64,000 nt of DNA from Escherichia coli. Lineage in GTDB: Bacteria; Pseudomonadota; Gammaproteobacteria; Enterobacterales; Enterobacteriaceae. Below the pieces are notes generated by a model. It made no database searches. It was not told the origin of the DNA and saw nothing but the letters and a program-made list of their open reading frames with translations. This document shows, piece after piece, positions 3,873-51,306 of the stretch (position 1 is the stretch's first letter; each line of letters starts with the position of its first letter). The DNA lies in the NCBI RefSeq assembly GCF_044324785.1, contig NZ_CP172127.1; one strand, given 5' to 3'. The position numbers were made by a program, and so were the translations under genes.

Positions 3873-4742
3873 ATGGCCATAAGCATCAAGGGTGTTAATA
3901 CCGGTGTTATTCGCAAGAGCAATAATTTCATTGCACTGGCGCTGAAAATTAAAGAGCCTCGCAATAAAGAATCGTTGTTCTTTCTGTCTGTCATGGAACT
4001 GCGCGACCTTCTGATTGCGCTGGAAAGCCGTCTGCATCAAAAGCATAAACTGGATGCTGCTGCACGCCTTCAGTATGAGCAAGCTCGCGATAAAGTCATT
4101 AAGAAAATGGCAGAAAATATCCCAGAAATTCTGGTTGATGAGCTTAAAAATGCCGATATTAATCGTCGGGTTAACACGCTGGAACTTACCGATAATCAGG
4201 GTGAAAATCTTACCTTCGTATTAACGCTACATGACGGTAGCAAATGTGAGTTAGTCATCAATGAATTGCAGATTGAAATGCTGGCGCGAGCAATCATTCA
4301 TGCAATTAATAATGCGGAAATGCGTGAACTGGCATTACGTATTACCTCACTGTTAGATTTCCTGCCGTTATACGACGTTGACTGCCAGGACAATGGCAAT
4401 CTGGAATATGACACCTATTCCCAACCGGAATGGAAACATAACTTGTTCAACCATTATCTGGCGGTGCTTTACCGCTTTAAAGATGAAAGTGGCAAAGAAC
4501 AATTTAGCGGCGCAGTGGTGAAAACGCGTGAAGCAACGCCGGGTAAAGAAGTGGAGGCGATCACTCGCCGAATGCTTGATTTCAGCCCACGACTGAAAAA
4601 ACTCGCGGGTGTACCATGTCAGGTCTATGTTCGCACCGTAGCGGCAAATAACGCCCAACTGCTAACCCAGGATCAATGCTTACGCGCGCTACATCACTTA
4701 CGTGTTCAATCCACCAGCAAAACTGCACCACAGGCGAAATAA
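3873..4742 (+). CDS. yjeJ: uncharacterised protein YjeJ
   Basis: 289-aa ORF in the K-12 position between epmB and yjeI/groL. Confidence 0.75.
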   Translation: MAISIKGVNTGVIRKSNNFIALALKIKEPRNKESLFFLSVMELRDLLIALESRLHQKHKLDAAARLQYEQARDKVIKKMAENIPEILVDELKNADINRRVNTLELTDNQGENLTFVLTLHDGSKCELVINELQIEMLARAIIHAINNAEMRELALRITSLLDFLPLYDVDCQDNGNLEYDTYSQPEWKHNLFNHYLAVLYRFKDESGKEQFSGAVVKTREATPGKEVEAITRRMLDFSPRLKKLAGVPCQVYVRTVAANNAQLLTQDQCLRALHHLRVQSTSKTAPQAK

Positions 4743-44918: not shown

Positions 44919-46499
44919 TCAGGTGCCGATTATGCCGCCGTCGGCTTTTACGATAACGACAGTTGAGGAGCGCGGACGACCAGCCTTATCGCCGTCAGGC
45001 CAGCTTGATACTGCCGTCGGATGCTGCGGATCGCTAAGCCCTTCGCTTGGCTCGCCAGGGTGCTGGATGTTAATAAACAGCGTCCGGTTATCCGGAGTGA
45101 ACGCGATGCCGGTGATTTCGCAGCCGCGCGGGCCGGTCAGGAAGCGGCGGAACTCATTGGTACCGGGGATCGTCGCCACCATCTGGTTGTTGCCCATGCC
45201 TTTGTAATCTTTAATATTTATGGTTGATGACGACACGTCGGTCTGGATCCATAGCACGCCGCGGTGATCAAAGCTCAGGCCATCGGCGCTGCCGAATTCC
45301 GCACCCTTCATGCTGCCTTTGGTTTCCAGTTTGTCTGTATCGGTGCGACCGCCCATCACAAGAATATCCCAGGCAAACTGCAGCGCGGTCGGGTCACCGT
45401 TATGCTCCAACCAGTGAATGATGTGGCCGTAAACGTTTTTGGCGCGCGGGTTGGCCGCATCCACTGGCGCTTTTCCTTCCTTACCGCGATCGCTGTTGTT
45501 GGTGAGCGTGCAGTAAACGCTGCCGGCGTGATATGGATCGACCGCAATCCACTCCGGGCGGTCCATTTTAGTGGCCCCCACGGCGTCTGCCGCCAGACGG
45601 GTTTTAATCAACAGGTCGCCCTGGTTTTCAAACCCTTTACTGGCGTCGAGCCCATTTTGTCCGAACACCAGCGGTAGCCACTCGCCTTTGCCGTCGTCGT
45701 TAAATTTCGCCACGTACAGAGTGCCTTTTTCCAGCAGGTGCATGTTGGCTTTGCGATCCTGCGGGTTGAATTTTCCTTCCGAGACAAATTTATATATGTA
45801 TTCGAATTTCTGGTCATCGCCCATATAGACCACAACGCGGTTATCCGGGGCAATTGTCACCGCTGCGCCTTCGTGTTTGATGCGACCAAGCGCGGTGTGC
45901 TTGCGCGGCACTGAATGCGGATCGTATGGATCGATTTCCACCACCCAGCCGAAGCGGTTCGGCTCGTTCGGCGTGGCGTCGACGCTGAACCTTTTATCCA
46001 CTTCGTTCCAGCGGTAAGAGTCGTCGCTCCCGCTGATACCGTAACGTTTTTCCAGCGGGTTCATCTCTGCTTTTTTTACGAAAATATCGGACCAGTTCTC
46101 TTCACACGTCAGATAGGTGCCCCACGGCGTAAATCCGTTGGCACAGTTCTGCATGGTGCCGAGAATGATTTCGCCTTTCGGATCGTCAACTGTTTGCATC
46201 AGTGGGTTATGCAGCGCCGGACCGGTGATTTTCATCGGCGTGTTAACGGTGATGCGGCGTGCGAACGATGACGGGCGCACCACTTCCCAGCCCAGGGGCA
46301 CTTTTTTTACTTCAATGACCGACACGCCCATCGCGTTCTGGCCTTTAAGAGCTTTATCGGCGCTCCAGTTGGCATCGCCATCTTTAAACAGTAGACCGTT
46401 ATCGATGTATTCATGGTTTATGGCAAGCAGGCCGTGATCGGAGCTGTTCCCTGATGCGCCGCGCGATAAATGCACTCTATCTTGTGCGATAAATGGCAT
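44919..46499 (-). pseudogene. PhoX-like (DUF839) phosphatase, N-terminally truncated at the prophage junction
   Basis: 526-aa ORF lacking a signal peptide and N-terminal region; homology starts near ...GLLAINHEY...; upstream end abuts the invertase end of the prophage. Confidence 0.5.
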
Positions 46500-46529
46500 C
46501 CACGCGGCGTTTCATTATTTGAAAAAGAA

Positions 46530-47102
46530 TTACATTTCAGGTTGCGTTATGACAGTCCCAACAGGGTGGTAGCGGTAGATCGTTGACAGTCCAATATCAT
46601 AGATAATTGCCAGCCGCTTTCTGTCATACCCTTTCTGGAGCAATCTTGCGATCTGCTCATGCTGCTCCTTCGTCAGTTTCGGGCGACGTCCTCCAACTCT
46701 TCCTTGTGCTCGCGCAGCAGCCAGTCCTGCCAGCGTGCGCTCAACTATCAGTTCACGCTCCATTTCTGCCAGTGCACCCATCATATGAAAAAAGAACCTT
46801 CCCATCGGAGTGCTGGTATCGATTGAATCCGTCAGACTGCGAAAATTGACACCTTTTGCGCGTAGCTCTTCTGTGAGAGCAATGAGGTGTTTCATTCTTC
46901 TACCCAACCGATCCAGCTTCCAGACCACCAATGTATCCCCTCTTTTAAGGCACTTTAAAGCGCGTTTCAGGCCTGGTCGTTCCGACTTGGTTCCGCTCAT
47001 TTTGTCCTCAAAAATCTGTTCACATCCTGCGCACATTAATGCATTGCGTTGCAAATCTGTGTTTTGGTCATTTGTTGACACACGTATGTAGCCAATCAGC
47101 AT
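46530..47102 (-). CDS. site-specific DNA invertase (serine recombinase, Gin/Pin/Cin/Hin family)
   Basis: 190-aa product MLIGYIRVSTNDQNTDLQ... with catalytic Ser in YIRVST and C-terminal HTH; adjacent to inverted tail-fibre cassettes. Confidence 0.9.
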   Translation of the reverse strand: MLIGYIRVSTNDQNTDLQRNALMCAGCEQIFEDKMSGTKSERPGLKRALKCLKRGDTLVVWKLDRLGRRMKHLIALTEELRAKGVNFRSLTDSIDTSTPMGRFFFHMMGALAEMERELIVERTLAGLAAARAQGRVGGRRPKLTKEQHEQIARLLQKGYDRKRLAIIYDIGLSTIYRYHPVGTVITQPEM

Positions 47103-47156
47103 TAAAAATACTCCCTTTTGAGTGGTTAAAGTACTGAGATAATGTGGGGAGGATTT

Positions 47157-47182
47157 GAGAGATAAACGTTGGTTTAGGAGAA
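47157..47182. promoter_or_regulatory. candidate gix/cix-like crossover site 1
   Basis: GAGAGATAAACG-TT-GGTTTAGGAGAA; right half matches the gix half-site GGTTTTGGATAA at 10 of 12 positions; lies at the start of cassette C. Confidence 0.5.
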
Positions 47183-47686
47183 GGCTCGGCGCTACCCGTT
47201 GGTGTGCCTGTTCCGTGGCCCACCGCCACACCGCCAGCAGGCTGGTTAAAGTGCGACGGGCGCGCCTTTACAAAAGAACAATATCCTGTTCTGGCCAGAG
47301 TCTACCCGACCCTCCGTCTTCCCGATTTACGCGGTGAGTTTATCCGTGGATGGGACGACGGGCGCAAAGTTGATACAGGACGTAAGTTGCTGTCCGCACA
47401 AGGGGCAACGCTGTTAAGAACAGCAATGCTGGATTATTATAACCAGGACACTACGGGAACCTCGGGGATAGTCGGCATGGGATTCAACAATGAAGATTCC
47501 ATTACAGACCTTCGTGAGGGCAGCTTTAAAATGCCGGACGGGACAACATTCAGCGATCCTGTCGTGGCAATGTCAGACAATGGTATGCAGGCTACTATTC
47601 TGACCTCTATCAGAAGCGGGTATGCGAAGGGTATCACTGTCAGACCCCGTAGCATTGCACTTAATTACATTGTGAGGGCAGTTTAA
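47162..47686 (+). CDS. tail-fibre C-terminal (receptor-binding) cassette C, promoterless, inverted relative to the tail-fibre gene
   Basis: reading frame open from 47159 (no ATG) encoding NVGLGEGSALPVGVPVPWPTATPPAGW...RGWDDGRK...NYIVRAV, homologous to the C-terminus of the 642-aa tail fibre. Confidence 0.7.
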   Translation: MNVGLGEGSALPVGVPVPWPTATPPAGWLKCDGRAFTKEQYPVLARVYPTLRLPDLRGEFIRGWDDGRKVDTGRKLLSAQGATLLRTAMLDYYNQDTTGTSGIVGMGFNNEDSITDLREGSFKMPDGTTFSDPVVAMSDNGMQATILTSIRSGYAKGITVRPRSIALNYIVRAV

Positions 47687-48300
47687 TGAGTAACACTGCA
47701 GTTCTGGATGAAAACGGTATCGCCACTGTAGCGGGCGAGATCACTGTATATCACTATGACGAGGAAACCCGGGAATACACCTCATCCTCTGTGGAGTATC
47801 TCGCCCTTGGGGTGGGTACTCCGGCACATTCGTGCGCCGATGCACCGCCGGAGGCAATTTCGGGTTACGTGGTTTGCCGGACTGCCACGCTGAACGGGTG
47901 GGAGCATGTGCCTGATCACCGCGGCGAGACGGTATACAGCACGGAGAACGGTAACCCCGTTCTGATTACCCAACCGGGTGATTACCCGGCGGACACCACC
48001 ACAAAACAGCCGGCCACGCCATGGGATACCTGGAACGGTGAGGCGTGGGTAACCGATACTGAACGGCAGCGAGCCGCAGAACTGGAGGTTGCCAGACAGC
48101 AACGCCAGCAACGGGTGAAACAGGCGATGGCGTCCGTCGATCTTATCAACCTCAAACTGCGTGCTGGTCGCAGTCTGACACCAGAAGAAACGGCAAAACT
48201 GAACGCCGTGCTGGATTATATCGACGAGCTGAACGCACTGGATATCAGCACGGCACCTGAAATCAGCTGGCCGGAAGCGCCACTGGCACTTGCCAGCTGA
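47686..48300 (+). CDS. tail-fibre assembly protein (Tfa/U-type chaperone)
   Basis: 204-aa ORF overlapping the end of cassette C (ATGA), in the usual position of a tail-fibre chaperone. Confidence 0.7.
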   Translation: MSNTAVLDENGIATVAGEITVYHYDEETREYTSSSVEYLALGVGTPAHSCADAPPEAISGYVVCRTATLNGWEHVPDHRGETVYSTENGNPVLITQPGDYPADTTTKQPATPWDTWNGEAWVTDTERQRAAELEVARQQRQQRVKQAMASVDLINLKLRAGRSLTPEETAKLNAVLDYIDELNALDISTAPEISWPEAPLALAS

Positions 48301-48306
48301 ACGGTA

Positions 48307-48780
48307 TCACGCCGCCCTCACGATATAGTTAAACGCGATATTGCGGGGGCGGGTTATGTTAAAGAATGCTCCGTTTAATTCGGCTTTTGCGCGACTGTTT
48401 GTTCCACCCAGAATTGCGTACCACAAATAATCGCTACGGTAATTCCCCGCAAACACCTTATCGCCGCCATAGTCAATATTATTTCCGTTACTCATGTACG
48501 AGATATCCAGCGAAGAATCGTTATCGTCATGACCGCCGACCAGTGTACCTTTCTGCCATGAAAGCAACTTACGCCCCTCGTCAATCTTGCGCCCGTCGTC
48601 CCATCCACGGATAAACTCACCGCGTAAATCGGGAAGACGGAGGGTCGGGTAGACTCTGGCCAGAACAGGATATTGTTCTTTGGTGAACGTAGCTCCGTTG
48701 CACTGTAACCAGCCTGCTGGCGGTGTGGCGGTGGGCCACGGAACAGGCACACCAACAGGCAATGCAGAGCCTTCCCCCAA
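48307..48780 (-). CDS. tail-fibre C-terminal cassette B (alternative receptor-binding domain)
   Basis: 157-aa ORF (TTG start) GEGSALPVGVPVPWPTATPPAGWLQCNGATF...NYIVRAA; frame open upstream through crossover site 2. Confidence 0.65.
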   Translation of the reverse strand: MGEGSALPVGVPVPWPTATPPAGWLQCNGATFTKEQYPVLARVYPTLRLPDLRGEFIRGWDDGRKIDEGRKLLSWQKGTLVGGHDDNDSSLDISYMSNGNNIDYGGDKVFAGNYRSDYLWYAILGGTNSRAKAELNGAFFNITRPRNIAFNYIVRAA

Positions 48781-48795
48781 ACCAACGTTTTTATG
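48770..48795. promoter_or_regulatory. candidate gix/cix-like crossover site 2
   Basis: reverse complement CATAAAAACG-TT-GGTTTGGGGGAAGG, inverted relative to site 1; lies between the tail-fibre stop and cassette B. Confidence 0.5.
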
Positions 48796-50719
48796 CGGCC
48801 CTTACGATGTAATTAAACGCAACATTGCGGGGGCGCATTGATATCCATGCCCCGGTAAAATTATCCTCCGCTGTCCTTTGAATACCCGTTATAGAGTTAT
48901 CTGCTGATGCAGGAACATAATCGCTATTATTTCCTGCTTTAGGATTAGCTGGGTTTCCAACGGTTATAACAGAATCAGCAGTAGCAAAAGCGATACCTAC
49001 TTTGACATTAGTATTCAGATCGTAACCGTAATAATCCTGCAAAGCTGTACGAATAAATGTTGCAGCCTGACCACTTAGCAATGAACGCCCCGTATCAACT
49101 TTGCGCCCGTCGTCCCATCCACGGATAAACTCACCGCGCAAATCGGGAAGACGGAGGGTCGGGTAGACTCTGGCCAGAACAGGATATTGTTCTTTTGTAA
49201 AGGCGCGCCCGTCACACTTTAACCAGCCTGCTGGCGGTGTGGCGGTGGGCCATGGAACAGGCACACCAACAGGCAGTGCAGAGCCTTCCCCCAAACCAAG
49301 GTAATTGAGGACATCTTTTATACTGCCCTTAGCGATAATAGCGCGACCAATAGCTGTAAGGGTTGCCAGCGCTGCGCGGTCTGCTCCGGTAAAATAAGGC
49401 AACCGATCTGCTGCAGTGGCAAGTCCTGCCAGAGCAGTGAGCGTGGCATCTGCCGGTTGTTTTCCGTTTGCCAGATCGTATGCAGCCTTGACCGCTTTCG
49501 GTGTGGCGGCCAGTATTTCAGACGTGCTGTTGATGGCACTGCTCAATTGTATGGTGCCTTTTGCCGTCAGCGAGGCAGCAGGCACTCCCGTTATCTGACT
49601 CCACGGGTGAGTGTGGCTGACGGGCGCCTTGCCGGCTGCAAGGTCGTATGCAGCCTTGACCGCCTTCGGCGTGGCAGCCTCAGTTTCTGATTGACTGTCC
49701 GTGGCGCTGCTCAGTTGTACGGTGCCTTTTGCCGTCAGCGAGGCAGCAGGCACTCCCGTTATCTGACTCCACGGGTGAGTGTGGCTGACGGGGGCCTTGC
49801 CGGCAGCCAGGTCATATGCAGCCTTGACGGCCTTTGGTGTGGCGGCCAGCGTTTCAGAGGTGCTGTTGGTGGCACTGCTCAGTTGTACGATCCCTTTACG
49901 GGTCGTTGTTGCATCCTGGGCTGTGTATTTTCCCCGGGCCAGATCATACGCGATTTTCACAGCCTTCGGCGTGGCAGCCTCAGTTTCTGATTGACTGTCC
50001 GTGGCGCTGCTCAGTTGTACGGTGCCTTTTGCCGTCAGCGAGGCAGCAGGCACTCCCGTTATCTGACTCCACGGGTGAGTGTGGCTGACGGGGGCCTTGC
50101 CGGCAGCTAGGTCATATGCAGCCTTGACGGCCTTTGGTGTGGCGGCCAGCGTTTCAGAGGTGCTGTTGGTGGCACTGCTCAGTTGTACGATCCCTTTACG
50201 GGTCGTTGTTGCATCCTGGGCTGTGTATTTTCCCCGGGCCAGATCATACGCGATTTTCACAGCCTTCGGCGTGGCAGCCTCAGTTTCTGATTGACTGTCC
50301 GTGGCACTGCTCAGCTGTACGGTGCCTTTTGCCGTCAGCGAGGCAGCAGGCACTCCCGTTATCTGACTCCACGGGTGAGTGTGACTGACGGGTGCCTTGC
50401 CGGCTGCAAGGTCGTATGCAGCCTTGACGGCTTTTGGTGTGGCGGCCAGCGTTTCAGAGGTGCTGTTGGTGGCACTGCTCAGTTGGGTGAACCCCTTAGC
50501 TGTCAGTGTCGCGTCCGGGTGGTTACGGGAACGTACGTGTTCAGCCAGTGACTGTGCGGCTTCCTCCGTTTTTTTCTTCAGCCATTTCGTCCTGTTTGCC
50601 AGTTGCCGGGGGGCTCGATTTGATATCCCGTCAGCACCACCCAGAACCGGATCTGATGTCTCCAGTTGATAGATTTTTTCTTCCCACTTTTCTGTTTCAT
50701 TCAGGTTTCCCATAATCAA
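48791..50719 (-). CDS. phage tail fibre protein with repeat-containing shaft and C-terminal domain A
   Basis: 642-aa ORF; central about 100-aa tandem repeats (SETLAATPKAVKAAYDLAAGK...); C-terminus GLGEGSALPVGVPVPWPT...NYIVRAA. Confidence 0.85.
   Translation of the reverse strand: MIMGNLNETEKWEEKIYQLETSDPVLGGADGISNRAPRQLANRTKWLKKKTEEAAQSLAEHVRSRNHPDATLTAKGFTQLSSATNSTSETLAATPKAVKAAYDLAAGKAPVSHTHPWSQITGVPAASLTAKGTVQLSSATDSQSETEAATPKAVKIAYDLARGKYTAQDATTTRKGIVQLSSATNSTSETLAATPKAVKAAYDLAAGKAPVSHTHPWSQITGVPAASLTAKGTVQLSSATDSQSETEAATPKAVKIAYDLARGKYTAQDATTTRKGIVQLSSATNSTSETLAATPKAVKAAYDLAAGKAPVSHTHPWSQITGVPAASLTAKGTVQLSSATDSQSETEAATPKAVKAAYDLAAGKAPVSHTHPWSQITGVPAASLTAKGTIQLSSAINSTSEILAATPKAVKAAYDLANGKQPADATLTALAGLATAADRLPYFTGADRAALATLTAIGRAIIAKGSIKDVLNYLGLGEGSALPVGVPVPWPTATPPAGWLKCDGRAFTKEQYPVLARVYPTLRLPDLRGEFIRGWDDGRKVDTGRSLLSGQAATFIRTALQDYYGYDLNTNVKVGIAFATADSVITVGNPANPKAGNNSDYVPASADNSITGIQRTAEDNFTGAWISMRPRNVAFNYIVRAA
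49284..49309. promoter_or_regulatory. candidate crossover site 3 inside the tail-fibre gene
   Basis: reverse complement CTCAATTACC-TT-GGTTTGGGGGAAGG encoding NYLGLGEG at the constant/variable junction; same orientation as site 2. Confidence 0.4.
49390..50520. repeat. 300-bp tandem repeats (about 3.5 copies) inside the tail-fibre gene
   Basis: identical 71-aa and 84-aa antisense ORFs recur 300 bp apart (49779/50079 and 49834/50134); protein shows repeated ...SSATNSTSETLAATPKAVKAAYDLAAGKAPVSHTHPWSQITGVPAASLTAKGTVQLSSATDSQSETEAATPKAVK... Confidence 0.85.
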
Positions 50720-51306
50720 CTGCTCCCGTGGTTATAACTGCCATCATGGATGGCGGTATTGTTATAGCGAATGGCCACAGACTGATACTCCAGGCTGGCC
50801 AGATGGCAGCGGGCCGGTGCAAATGCAGCGAGCGTCTGACGCAGCATCGCGGCCTGATCGTTAGTAATGGGCTGTTTCAGAATAACGCGATAAACCGCCC
50901 AGGCGGCTGCATCTCCATGAACAAACAGTCCGTTATAGCTGCGATTGCCGTCGTAACTGAGACGACCTGTGCCTTCAATCAGATCCACTTCACCAAAGCC
51001 AAAACGGCGGATAACTTCCCGGATTGACCACGGCGTCCCTTTATACCGGTGTAGTTCGATGGCTGCTTTTATAAGCATGCGGCGAACATCGTCCGATTCC
51101 GCCAGCTCCCAGCCATCGCCAGACAGTGAGAACTGCTCGCCCAGCCATGGCAGCGCAGAACTGTCGACGATATCGACGAGAAAGACCATCAGTACGCTCA
51201 GGTCGATGTTATCCAGCCGCCCTGCCAGTCTTCCCAGCGTCCTGAGACTGATATCACCCTCAAGCGGTGGCGGGAGTTGTAATGGCTCAGTCATCAGACA
51301 CTCCAC
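50716..51306 (-). CDS. phage baseplate/tail protein (P2 gpI-like)
   Basis: 196-aa ORF directly upstream of the tail fibre, overlapping the J-like gene. Confidence 0.6.
   Translation of the reverse strand: MECLMTEPLQLPPPLEGDISLRTLGRLAGRLDNIDLSVLMVFLVDIVDSSALPWLGEQFSLSGDGWELAESDDVRRMLIKAAIELHRYKGTPWSIREVIRRFGFGEVDLIEGTGRLSYDGNRSYNGLFVHGDAAAWAVYRVILKQPITNDQAAMLRQTLAAFAPARCHLASLEYQSVAIRYNNTAIHDGSYNHGSS

Follow-up and report, generated by a model that had tools for sequence, protein, structure and literature searches.

In the C segment/Cin system of P1, long repeats carry the crossover site at their outer end. The Min system of p15B, in which a Gin-family invertase reportedly acts on more than two sites, has six crossover sites. 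R64-type shufflons depend on the tyrosine recombinase Rci, which acts on 19-bp sfx repeats in pilV. A tail-fibre module with three inverted repeats, four variants and three C-termini was shown by PCR in EPEC E2348/69 (Goldberg et al. 2014; PMC4272514). The four variants of that module coexist in single colonies, as confirmed by PCR (PMC4272514). Here we analysed a 64,000-nucleotide stretch of Escherichia coli DNA (the window). The first-pass annotation had proposed a single invertase with three sites, cassettes for three alternative C-termini and more states than two, and all of this was confirmed, with four isomers present in genomes. We conclude with high confidence that the locus is an active Pin/Gin-type inversion switch for phage host range, which has three crossover sites instead of two.

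The locus adjoins the right end of a prophage (Table 1). Matches in other E. coli genomes all start at window positions 46451-46452, and their flanks vary between genomes. To the left of the prophage end lies host DNA with a truncated PhoX-family gene, into which the prophage is inserted; in other genomes this flank is an intact PhoX-family gene. No named NCBIfam family was obtained for the truncated flank protein, the cassettes or the assembly gene tfa. The prophage genes include a DDE transposase-like integrase, ExeA/MuB-like, Gam, Mor, gp16 and DUF935. From this gene content, the varied insertion sites and the taxonomy of a relative, the element is a transposable Bcepmuvirus-like phage. A P2-like origin of the tail module was considered, but was dropped in view of the full prophage annotation and the varied insertion sites. 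Among the phage genomes searched, there was no complete annotated close relative to reveal the state packaged in virions. ST131 and other clinical lineages commonly carry this prophage, often with several copies per genome.

Table 1. Features of the inversion locus and its flank (positions in the 64,000-nucleotide window)
Feature	Position	Strand	Description
Right end of transposable Bcepmuvirus-like prophage	46452-46529		starts TG; two GCGATAAATG repeats
Serine DNA invertase, Gin/Pin family	46530-47102	-	190 aa; catalytic Ser9 in YIRVSTNDQ
Crossover site 1, invertase-proximal	47157-47182	+	GAGAGATAAACG TT GGTTTAGGAGAA; faces cassette C in window isomer
Cassette C	47171-47686 (ORF 47204-47686)	+	171 codons; silent in window isomer
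Tail-fibre assembly (chaperone) gene tfa, single copy	47686-48300	+	204 aa; PHROG 105 E = 4.3e-88
Cassette B	48307-48783 (ORF 48307-48780)	-	158 codons; silent in window isomer; oriented as tail-fibre gene
Crossover site 2	48772-48797	-	CGCATAAAAACG TT GGTTTGGGGGAA
Cassette A	48791-49297	-	168 codons; fused to Sc, expressed tip in window isomer
Tail-fibre ORF	48791-50719	-	642 aa; constant part + cassette A
Crossover site 3	49286-49311	-	TCCTCAATTACC TT GGTTTGGGGGAA; within tail-fibre gene at ...NYLGLGE...
Constant N-terminal tail-fibre part (Sc)	49300-50719	-	seven Phage_fiber_2 repeats

On the strand of the invertase (minus), the longest open reading frame spans 46530-47231. Translation almost certainly begins at the ATG at 47102 (MLIGYIRVSTNDQ...), judging from an alignment with Mu Gin that begins at residue 1 and from the RefSeq gene, which has the same length of 573 nt. 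The protein matched PHROG 125 'DNA invertase' with E = 1.3e-94. Its residues 1-181 aligned with the Mu Gin structures 4m6f and 3uj3 (E ~1e-93) with Ser9 conserved, and the Hin DNA-binding domain 1hcr matched residues 139-184. This is the architecture of the small serine recombinases of the Gin/Hin/Cin/Pin systems, which have ~190 aa, the active-site Ser in a catalytic domain at the N-terminus and a helix-turn-helix at the C-terminus. The identity is 76% to Gin, 76% to PinE and 86% to the EPEC P2-like invertase, and the 5' part of the gene shares ~80% DNA identity with Mu gin. By analogy with this family, inversion would depend on Fis, and a cis-acting enhancer bound by Fis would lie within the 5' part of the invertase gene. 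Across the isomer loci examined, switching strains included, the invertase protein showed no differences (8 of 8 loci).

A search of the 64-kb window for the site motif ACSTTGGTTTRGGRGAAGG, even with up to two mismatches allowed, gave exactly three copies, against an expectation of 0.00 from shuffled sequence. All three copies fit X12-TT-GGTTT(G/A)GG(G/A)GAA, which comprises 26 bp with two 12-bp half-sites and a common TT core. The left halves, ending AAACG or TTACC, resemble the right half-site in reverse complement (TTCCCCCAAACC or TTCTCCTAAACC). Sites 2 and 3 are direct repeats, with site 1 in the opposite orientation to both, and the left half of site 2 overlaps the final codons and stop of cassette A. 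The first-pass annotation had placed site 1 exactly, once centred on the TT core, and sites 2 and 3 off by 2 bp. It had also described the motif as gix-like. Three invertase-type sites are indeed present, and they were set against the Mu gix and e14 pix records. The right half-site agrees with e14 pix at 11 of 12 positions, with a TT core in both, and with Mu gix, whose core is TC, at 9 of 12. On these alignments, the closest relative of the sites is e14 pix rather than gix.

The gene layout described earlier was confirmed in its main points: a 642-aa tail-fibre gene with C-terminal domain A beside the invertase, cassette B in the same orientation beginning immediately beyond the stop codon of A, and an oppositely oriented cassette C followed by the assembly gene. 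It was also correct, for the open reading frames as they lie in the window, that no assembly gene runs in the same orientation as A and B. The common junction at the start of all three cassettes is real, but is longer than the roughly 190 bp first given: B and A share 226 nt at 90%, C and A 274 nt at 88%, and C and B 231 nt at 89%. This homology between cassettes starts sharply, exactly at the crossover sites. The silent cassettes are all intact open reading frames, in frame from the site; that of C is open from 47171, with an in-frame TGA directly upstream at 47156-47158. Each tip, including that of C, consists of a collar domain, a variable region of 75-95 aa and a conserved RPRNIAFNYIVRAA end. 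In cassette A, the Pfam Collar domain falls at tail-fibre residues 485-532. Among PDB sequences, the fibre end matched only the T4 gp37 collar region (2xgf) and a short tail fibre. Within the constant part Sc, 300-nt units are repeated in tandem at 49470-50537 (repeat family D1).

Along the minus strand of the window, on which the tail-fibre gene is read, the locus is Sc (site 3) A> (site 2) B> <tfa <C (site 1) invertase>. This layout gives exactly four inversion isomers, and no large combinatorial set. State 1, that of the window, is Sc-A, B> <tfa <C; state 2 is Sc-C tfa> <B <A; state 3 is Sc-B, <tfa <C <A; and state 4 is Sc-A, C> tfa> <B. In the proposed mechanism, the invertase would pair site 1 with site 3 for a 2,130-bp inversion, or with site 2 for a 1,616-bp inversion. 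It would cut at the common TT core, probably with the 2-bp stagger of the Gin/Hin/Cin/Pin family, rotate and religate, and successive inversions interconvert the four isomers. The four isomers together yield one constant shaft ending in tip A, B or C, and from the same family it may be expected that the three tips confer different host ranges.

All four isomers are present in complete E. coli genomes with 99-100% identity. Synthetic Sc-C and Sc-B joints with the crossover at TT were found full-length, unbroken and at 100% identity in many complete genomes. State 1 occurs in at least 12 genomes and state 3 was seen at L001, L004 and L007. In the collection of 5,426 genomes, at least 40 carry state 2 and at least 7 carry state 4 as one full-length piece, both counts being lower bounds that include only such single-piece matches. 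The search joins same-strand pieces, which confounds total state counts, and lower bounds were therefore used.

The position of tfa within the invertible DNA bears on which tips can make a working fibre. Its product matched Pfam Caudo_TAP (E = 5.2e-28) and had no match among PDB sequences, and its ATG overlaps the stop of cassette C (TAATG). When the fibre ends in tip A in state 1 or in tip B in state 3, two isomers out of four, the gene is antisense to late transcription. A scan of 46400-50900, limited to sigma-70-like promoters as distinct from phage late promoters, gave none reading into tfa from the invertase side; its single weak match lay elsewhere (48838-48867), fewer than in shuffled sequence. 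It could be supposed that cassette C alone makes a working fibre and that A and B are decaying remnants carried by the switch, since the assembly gene follows only C and opposes late transcription whenever B is expressed, and for A in state 1. Nevertheless, intact copies of A and B, conserved at 99-100%, are present at all loci, whichever state these are in, and state 4 places tfa downstream of A in the same orientation. In EPEC, the order of one assembly gene and three cassettes is kept at ~70-77% DNA identity and ~50-57% tip identity. Moreover, all tips retain the conserved C-terminal segment, at which Mu Tfa reportedly binds its fibre. We consider it improbable that C is the only functional tip.

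Whether one assembly chaperone serves three fibre tips, despite its gene opposing late transcription in states 1 and 3, is a separate matter, and we offer this only as a tentative and rather doubtful proposal. If it does, the conserved end of all tips would be a common docking site for the chaperone. The one-chaperone arrangement is retained both by the EPEC module, which has diverged, and by the common form with two cassettes, and this suggests that it is workable. Should tips A and B work in states 1 and 3, an unrecognised promoter on the side of the invertase may drive tfa whatever its orientation. Alternatively, collar-type tips may fold without a chaperone, or the chaperone may be supplied in trans by the related prophages usual in these genomes. 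Should A and B fibres fail in those states, the switch would regularly yield fibre-defective virions.

The switch is seen at work in closely related genomes. The genomes p11A (5,295,151 bp; state 1) and p11B (5,295,156 bp; state 2) both carry the prophage beside ydiV and are a 2,134-bp inversion apart at 99.95% identity. Esc30 (state 3) and Esc31 (state 2) both carry it in malE and are a 1,620-bp inversion apart. Within each of these sister pairs the insertion matches and the predicted inversion is the sole difference. Furthermore, GN04979 has three copies, two of them in states 4 and 2 and the third with an Sc-B joint. At nine of nine loci, the base 5' of TT remained with the outside flank, and where the repeats were of the window type, the SNPs specific to a cassette travelled with it from +6 on. 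Exchange at the nine loci was confined to the 7-nt TTGGTTT, core included, at the outer edge of the repeat, a resolution of 7 nt and not of the phosphodiester bond. This favours site-specific over homologous recombination.

The isomers might also be made by RecA, through homologous recombination of the 226-274-bp inverted repeats, with the invertase irrelevant or inactive. The repeats are 88-90% identical and of adequate length for some RecA activity, and in p11 genomes B-type SNPs stand in the opening ~40 nt of the C repeat, which suggests that some homologous exchange or gene conversion between repeats occurs as well. However, every locus examined had exchanged at the outer-edge TTGGTTT and never inside the ~230 bp of homology, and the synthetic joints with the crossover at TT have perfect matches in many genomes. 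In addition, the sites match functional pix sites with a single common core, and the invertase is intact and identical among switching strains, so RecA as the source of the isomers appears very improbable. Assemblies do give one orientation per locus, but it is scarcely credible that the arrangements are assembly artefacts or fixed ancient variants and the locus frozen in the window strain, given two near-identical genome pairs that differ only by the predicted inversion at the same insertion site, the differing copies in GN04979, repeats much shorter than long reads, and the coexisting variants found by PCR in the homologous EPEC module (PMC4272514). We therefore retain site-specific inversion by the invertase, and the identical copies in other genomes suggest that switching would extend to the window's own strain.

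With this switch, a single gene would offer three receptor-binding tips to a prophage that is widespread in E. coli, and this is relevant to host-range prediction, phage-typing and phage-therapy work. In genome comparison, its isomers can mimic 'translocations' or assembly differences between otherwise identical isolates. The biology repeats a known principle, and its wider interest lies only in how one chaperone gene within invertible DNA serves three tips.

Among the known systems, Mu shares the position of the invertase, which in both phages is the last gene of the late region, downstream of the invertible segment and in the same transcription direction. Both phages are transposable, and gix in Mu occupies the matching point of the fibre gene (...NLGLQE..., compared with YLGLGE in the window). 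However, Mu has two TC-core gix sites within 34-bp repeats, with two alternative Sv-U units of opposite orientation between them, whereas the window has three sites and repeats of 226-274 bp; Mu also provides each cassette with its own chaperone (S-U and S'-U'), whereas here there is one chaperone gene for three cassettes. Unlike Mu, the window has no com/mom genes beyond the invertase. The three cassettes, three sites and single assembly gene rule out membership of the Mu G-segment type. The pix sites of e14 (the P segment/PinE of E. coli K-12), CTCTCGAAAACC TT GGTTTGGGAGAA and TTTTCATAAACG TT GGTTTGGGAGAA, are nearly identical to those of the window, and in both systems the invertase-proximal left half ends ACG and that on the side of the fibre gene ends ACC. 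Unlike the window, e14 combines two sites with two cassettes, and each cassette has an assembly gene to itself (tfaP and tfaE).

With three sites, four isomers, three C-termini and one invertase, the locus is a multiple-inversion tail-fibre module. The first-pass annotation was right to see more than the two-state Mu arrangement; its likening to a shufflon holds only for the logic of multiple inversion, and the R64 type in the strict sense is ruled out by a serine invertase, not Rci, and a phage tail-fibre target. As in Min of p15B, which has many more isomers, a single Gin-family invertase shuffles tail-fibre ends through more than two sites, and as in the P1 C segment, the crossover sites lie at the outer end of long repeats. 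The EPEC E2348/69 module (NC_011601.1, 1891695-1893703) has the gene order Sc-A> B> <tfa <C invertase>, as in the window. It likewise has three TT-core sites with the right half GGTTTGGGGGAA, to which the three sites here are nearly identical, four isomers, three C-termini and one assembly gene, and its nested inversions are ~2.0 and 1.6 kb, compared with 2.13 and 1.62 kb here. The backbones differ, P2-like in EPEC and Bcepmuvirus-like and transposable in the window. Identity is 59% between the assembly proteins and ~50-57% between the tips, indicating that the receptor-binding regions differ. For the EPEC module there is validation by PCR and paired-end reads; for that of the window, support comes from natural isomers only. 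The switch in the window has a precedent, since a homologous module in which the genes follow the same order has already been shown experimentally in EPEC.

Read along the fibre direction, the locus has the order Sc (site 3) A> (site 2) B> <tfa <C (site 1) invertase>, where Sc is the constant N-terminal part of the tail fibre, A, B and C are alternative collar-plus-tip cassettes, and tfa is the tail-fibre assembly (chaperone) gene. The cassette homology has an abrupt onset at ACSTTGGTTTRGGRGAAGG, a motif with three occurrences in the 64-kb window, where 0.00 would be expected. All parts of the three-cassette, three-site layout beside an invertase that the first-pass annotation had described were found in the sequence. 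The junction it reported is also present, although the repeat common to the three fibre ends covers 226-274 nt (88-90% identity) rather than roughly 190 bp. With the borders of the 26-bp sites set by centring on the TT dinucleotide, one of the site positions it had proposed was exact and two were off by 2 bp.

Features of the tail-fibre inversion module in the window
Feature	Coordinates	Strand	Remarks
Tail-fibre ORF, 642 aa	50719-48791	minus	seven Phage_fiber_2 repeats; Collar domain at residues 485-532
Site 3	49311-49286		TCCTCAATTACC-TT-GGTTTGGGGGAA
Site 2	48797-48772		CGCATAAAAACG-TT-GGTTTGGGGGAA
Cassette B, promoterless tail-fibre end	48783-48307	minus	begins six bases past the fibre stop codon
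Assembly gene tfa	47686-48300	plus	PHROG 105, Pfam Caudo_TAP
Cassette C, third fibre end	in frame from 47171, end 47686	plus	
Site 1	47157-47182		GAGAGATAAACG-TT-GGTTTAGGAGAA
Serine invertase	longest ORF start 47231; ATG 47102	minus	ATG 47102 is the start agreeing with Gin and RefSeq gene models

The reference crossover sequences were read directly from the Mu and e14 records: gix of Mu has the sequence TTATCCAAAACC-TC-GGTTTACAGGAA, and the e14 pix pair is CTCTCGAAAACC-TT-GGTTTGGGAGAA and TTTTCATAAACG-TT-GGTTTGGGAGAA. The window sites share the pix core and are identical to pix at 11/12 positions of the right half, which makes them pix-like. The earlier label gix-like was right about invertase-type crossover sites, but the nearer relative is pix of e14, with its TT core, rather than gix, with a TC core. 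In Mu, gix lies in S at NLGLQE, and the intragenic fibre site of the window lies at the equivalent position, YLGLGE. The invertase shares 76% identity with both Gin and PinE, and 86% with the invertase of a P2-like prophage in EPEC E2348/69.

We modelled the layout with recombination permitted between inverted sites only, and exactly four isomers resulted: state 1 (Sc-A, B> <tfa <C, the arrangement of the window), state 2 (Sc-C tfa> <B <A), state 3 (Sc-B, <tfa <C <A) and state 4 (Sc-A, C> tfa> <B). The predicted recombinant joints were then constructed and searched against 5,426 complete E. coli genomes. The Sc-C and Sc-B joints were present in many of them, at 100% identity, full length and unbroken. 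At least 40 full-length matches in a single piece were obtained with a query diagnostic of state 2 (invertase-A-B), and at least 7 with one diagnostic of state 4 (Sc-A-C-tfa); state 1 occurred in at least 12 genomes. Among the annotated copies in other genomes, L001, L004 and L007 were in state 3, L002 in state 4, and L006 and L008 in state 2. All four predicted isomers thus exist in complete E. coli genomes.

RecA-dependent homologous recombination between the repeats might also be proposed as the source of these isomers, and the lineage of the blood isolates p11A and p11B (L005/L006; sites at 4370, 5986 and 6503) has something to offer it: the first ~40 nt of its C repeat carry B-type SNPs. 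Such homogenised B and C repeat starts suggest some gene conversion between repeats over time, beside site-specific exchange. As the origin of the isomers, however, RecA is very improbable. The base 5' of TT stayed with the outside flank in 9/9 loci (C on the Sc side, G on the A-end and invertase sides), and cassette-specific SNPs moved with the cassette, from +6 on, in loci with window-type repeats. Together these confine the exchange to TTGGTTT, at the extreme edge of the repeat, contrary to the RecA prediction; none of the nine loci showed exchange inside the ~230 bp of homology. As read from these alignments, the position of exchange fits a Gin-type cut at the core.

Site-specific inversion was also visible between sister genomes. 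The isolates p11A and p11B, both from Houston, have genomes of 5,295,151 and 5,295,156 bp with the prophage next to ydiV in each; the locus is in state 1 in p11A but in state 2 in p11B, the inverted block of 2,134 bp is 99.95% identical, and the loci are colinear elsewhere. The second pair, Esc30 in state 3 and Esc31 in state 2, has the prophage inserted in malE and differs by an inverted block of 1,620 bp. That the isomers are assembly artefacts or fixed ancient variants of a frozen locus is hardly credible, because each of these pairs shares its insertion site and shows the predicted inversion only, and GN04979 (NZ_CP147551.1) holds copies in different states within one genome (two of its three assigned to states 4 and 2, the third with an Sc-B joint). 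KS21 (NZ_CM194010.1) likewise has two copies, in states 1 and 4. The invertase protein of the window is identical to that of these switching strains. Judged from sequence comparison, site-specific inversion is real, active and well explained here, by the mechanism of the Gin/Pin family; for the window's own strain, switching is what we infer. In multi-copy genomes, it seems likely that the invertases act in trans on one another's sites. Roughly one in four complete E. coli genomes has matches to the module; the median number of places per genome is 4, and 595 places are on plasmids.

When direct sites recombine in the model, A is removed every time. A common two-cassette form without A exists, as in L003 (NZ_CP029747.1, 5252-6868), which reads Sc-C tfa> <B invertase, and its joint between the invertase side and B is exactly the one predicted for deletion between directly repeated sites.

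The module belongs to a transposable prophage of Bcepmuvirus type, about 38.6 kb long, with genes for a DDE-type integrase, an ExeA/MuB-like protein, Gam, Mor, gp16 and a DUF935 portal. Its early and late genes are divergent, and the invertase is the last gene. Within the region 44919-46529, the prophage end lies at window 46452 and begins with TG (TGATGCGCC...); its terminal ~80 bp contain the repeat GCGATAAATG twice. In the window genome the insertion splits a PhoX-family gene, which other E. coli have in intact form. Other genomes have the prophage in flgA, malE, yqhA, yjjI and elsewhere, a variety of insertion sites that would be expected of a Mu/BcepMu-type transposable phage.

In the constant part of the fibre gene, a tandem array (window 49470-50537) contains four copies of a 300-nt (100-codon) unit at 78-100% identity. 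Across genomes, annotated fibre genes measure between 1593 and 2004 nt, and some matches fall short by exactly 300 bp. Such differences suggest a shaft-length polymorphism, in which the array copy number seems to differ between genomes.

The single assembly gene adjoins C only. In the model, tfa points the same way as the late operon in states 2 and 4 but is antisense to it in states 1 and 3, and in none of the four states does it follow B. A promoter scan found no sigma-70-like promoter on the invertase side. In the stretch 47669-47688, the start of tfa overlaps the stop of C (TAATG), and a Shine-Dalgarno-like GAGGG lies within the conserved ...IVRA... codons; the conserved fibre C-terminus is thus predicted to encode the tfa ribosome-binding site as well. 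All tips of the window and EPEC retain the N-terminal 77 aa and the C-terminal RPRNIAFNYIVRAA. Tfa of Mu reportedly docks on the conserved fibre end, and by analogy our data are compatible with one common chaperone docking on the conserved end of each tip. Non-collar cassettes differ in this respect: in e14, in the EPEC Mu prophage and in a second EPEC P2-like remnant, each is accompanied by an assembly gene of its own.

Among known systems, Min of p15B is the classical multi-site relative, and the shufflon recombinase is the tyrosine recombinase Rci. The first-pass annotation had argued for more than two states, as found, and had likened the locus to shufflon or Min-like multiple inversion. 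The multi-site logic and the four isomers agree with that comparison, but the locus is not a shufflon, since its recombinase is a serine invertase. Nor is it a standard Mu G segment, given three sites, three cassettes and a single assembly gene. The remaining two invertible tail-fibre loci of EPEC E2348/69, L011 (NC_011601.1 2749478-2751398) and L016 (2977580-2979467), have pix-like sites but follow the classical plan of two cassettes, each with its own assembly gene; a short invertase fragment, and no intact invertase, is annotated adjacent to the L011 segment, which may therefore rely on an invertase in trans. In a preprint on ST131 'Bone' isolates (10.1101/2022.05.07.487787), the tail-fibre region of an invertase-carrying prophage labelled Burkho_phiE255 is described as having undergone a 'translocation', and Bcepmuvirus is listed among the prophage genera. 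Going by these labels, that prophage is probably the present element in different states. The direct experimental precedent is the EPEC E2348/69 module of Goldberg et al. 2014 (PMC4272514), with two overlapping inversions, four variants, three C-termini and three 215-bp repeats beginning ACCTTGGTTTGGGGGAAGGCTCTGCACTGCC; the four variants were found together in single colonies and confirmed by PCR. Its gene order is identical to that of the window, single assembly gene included, whereas the DNA is about 70-77% and the tips are about 50-57% identical. The principle is thus already known from that module.
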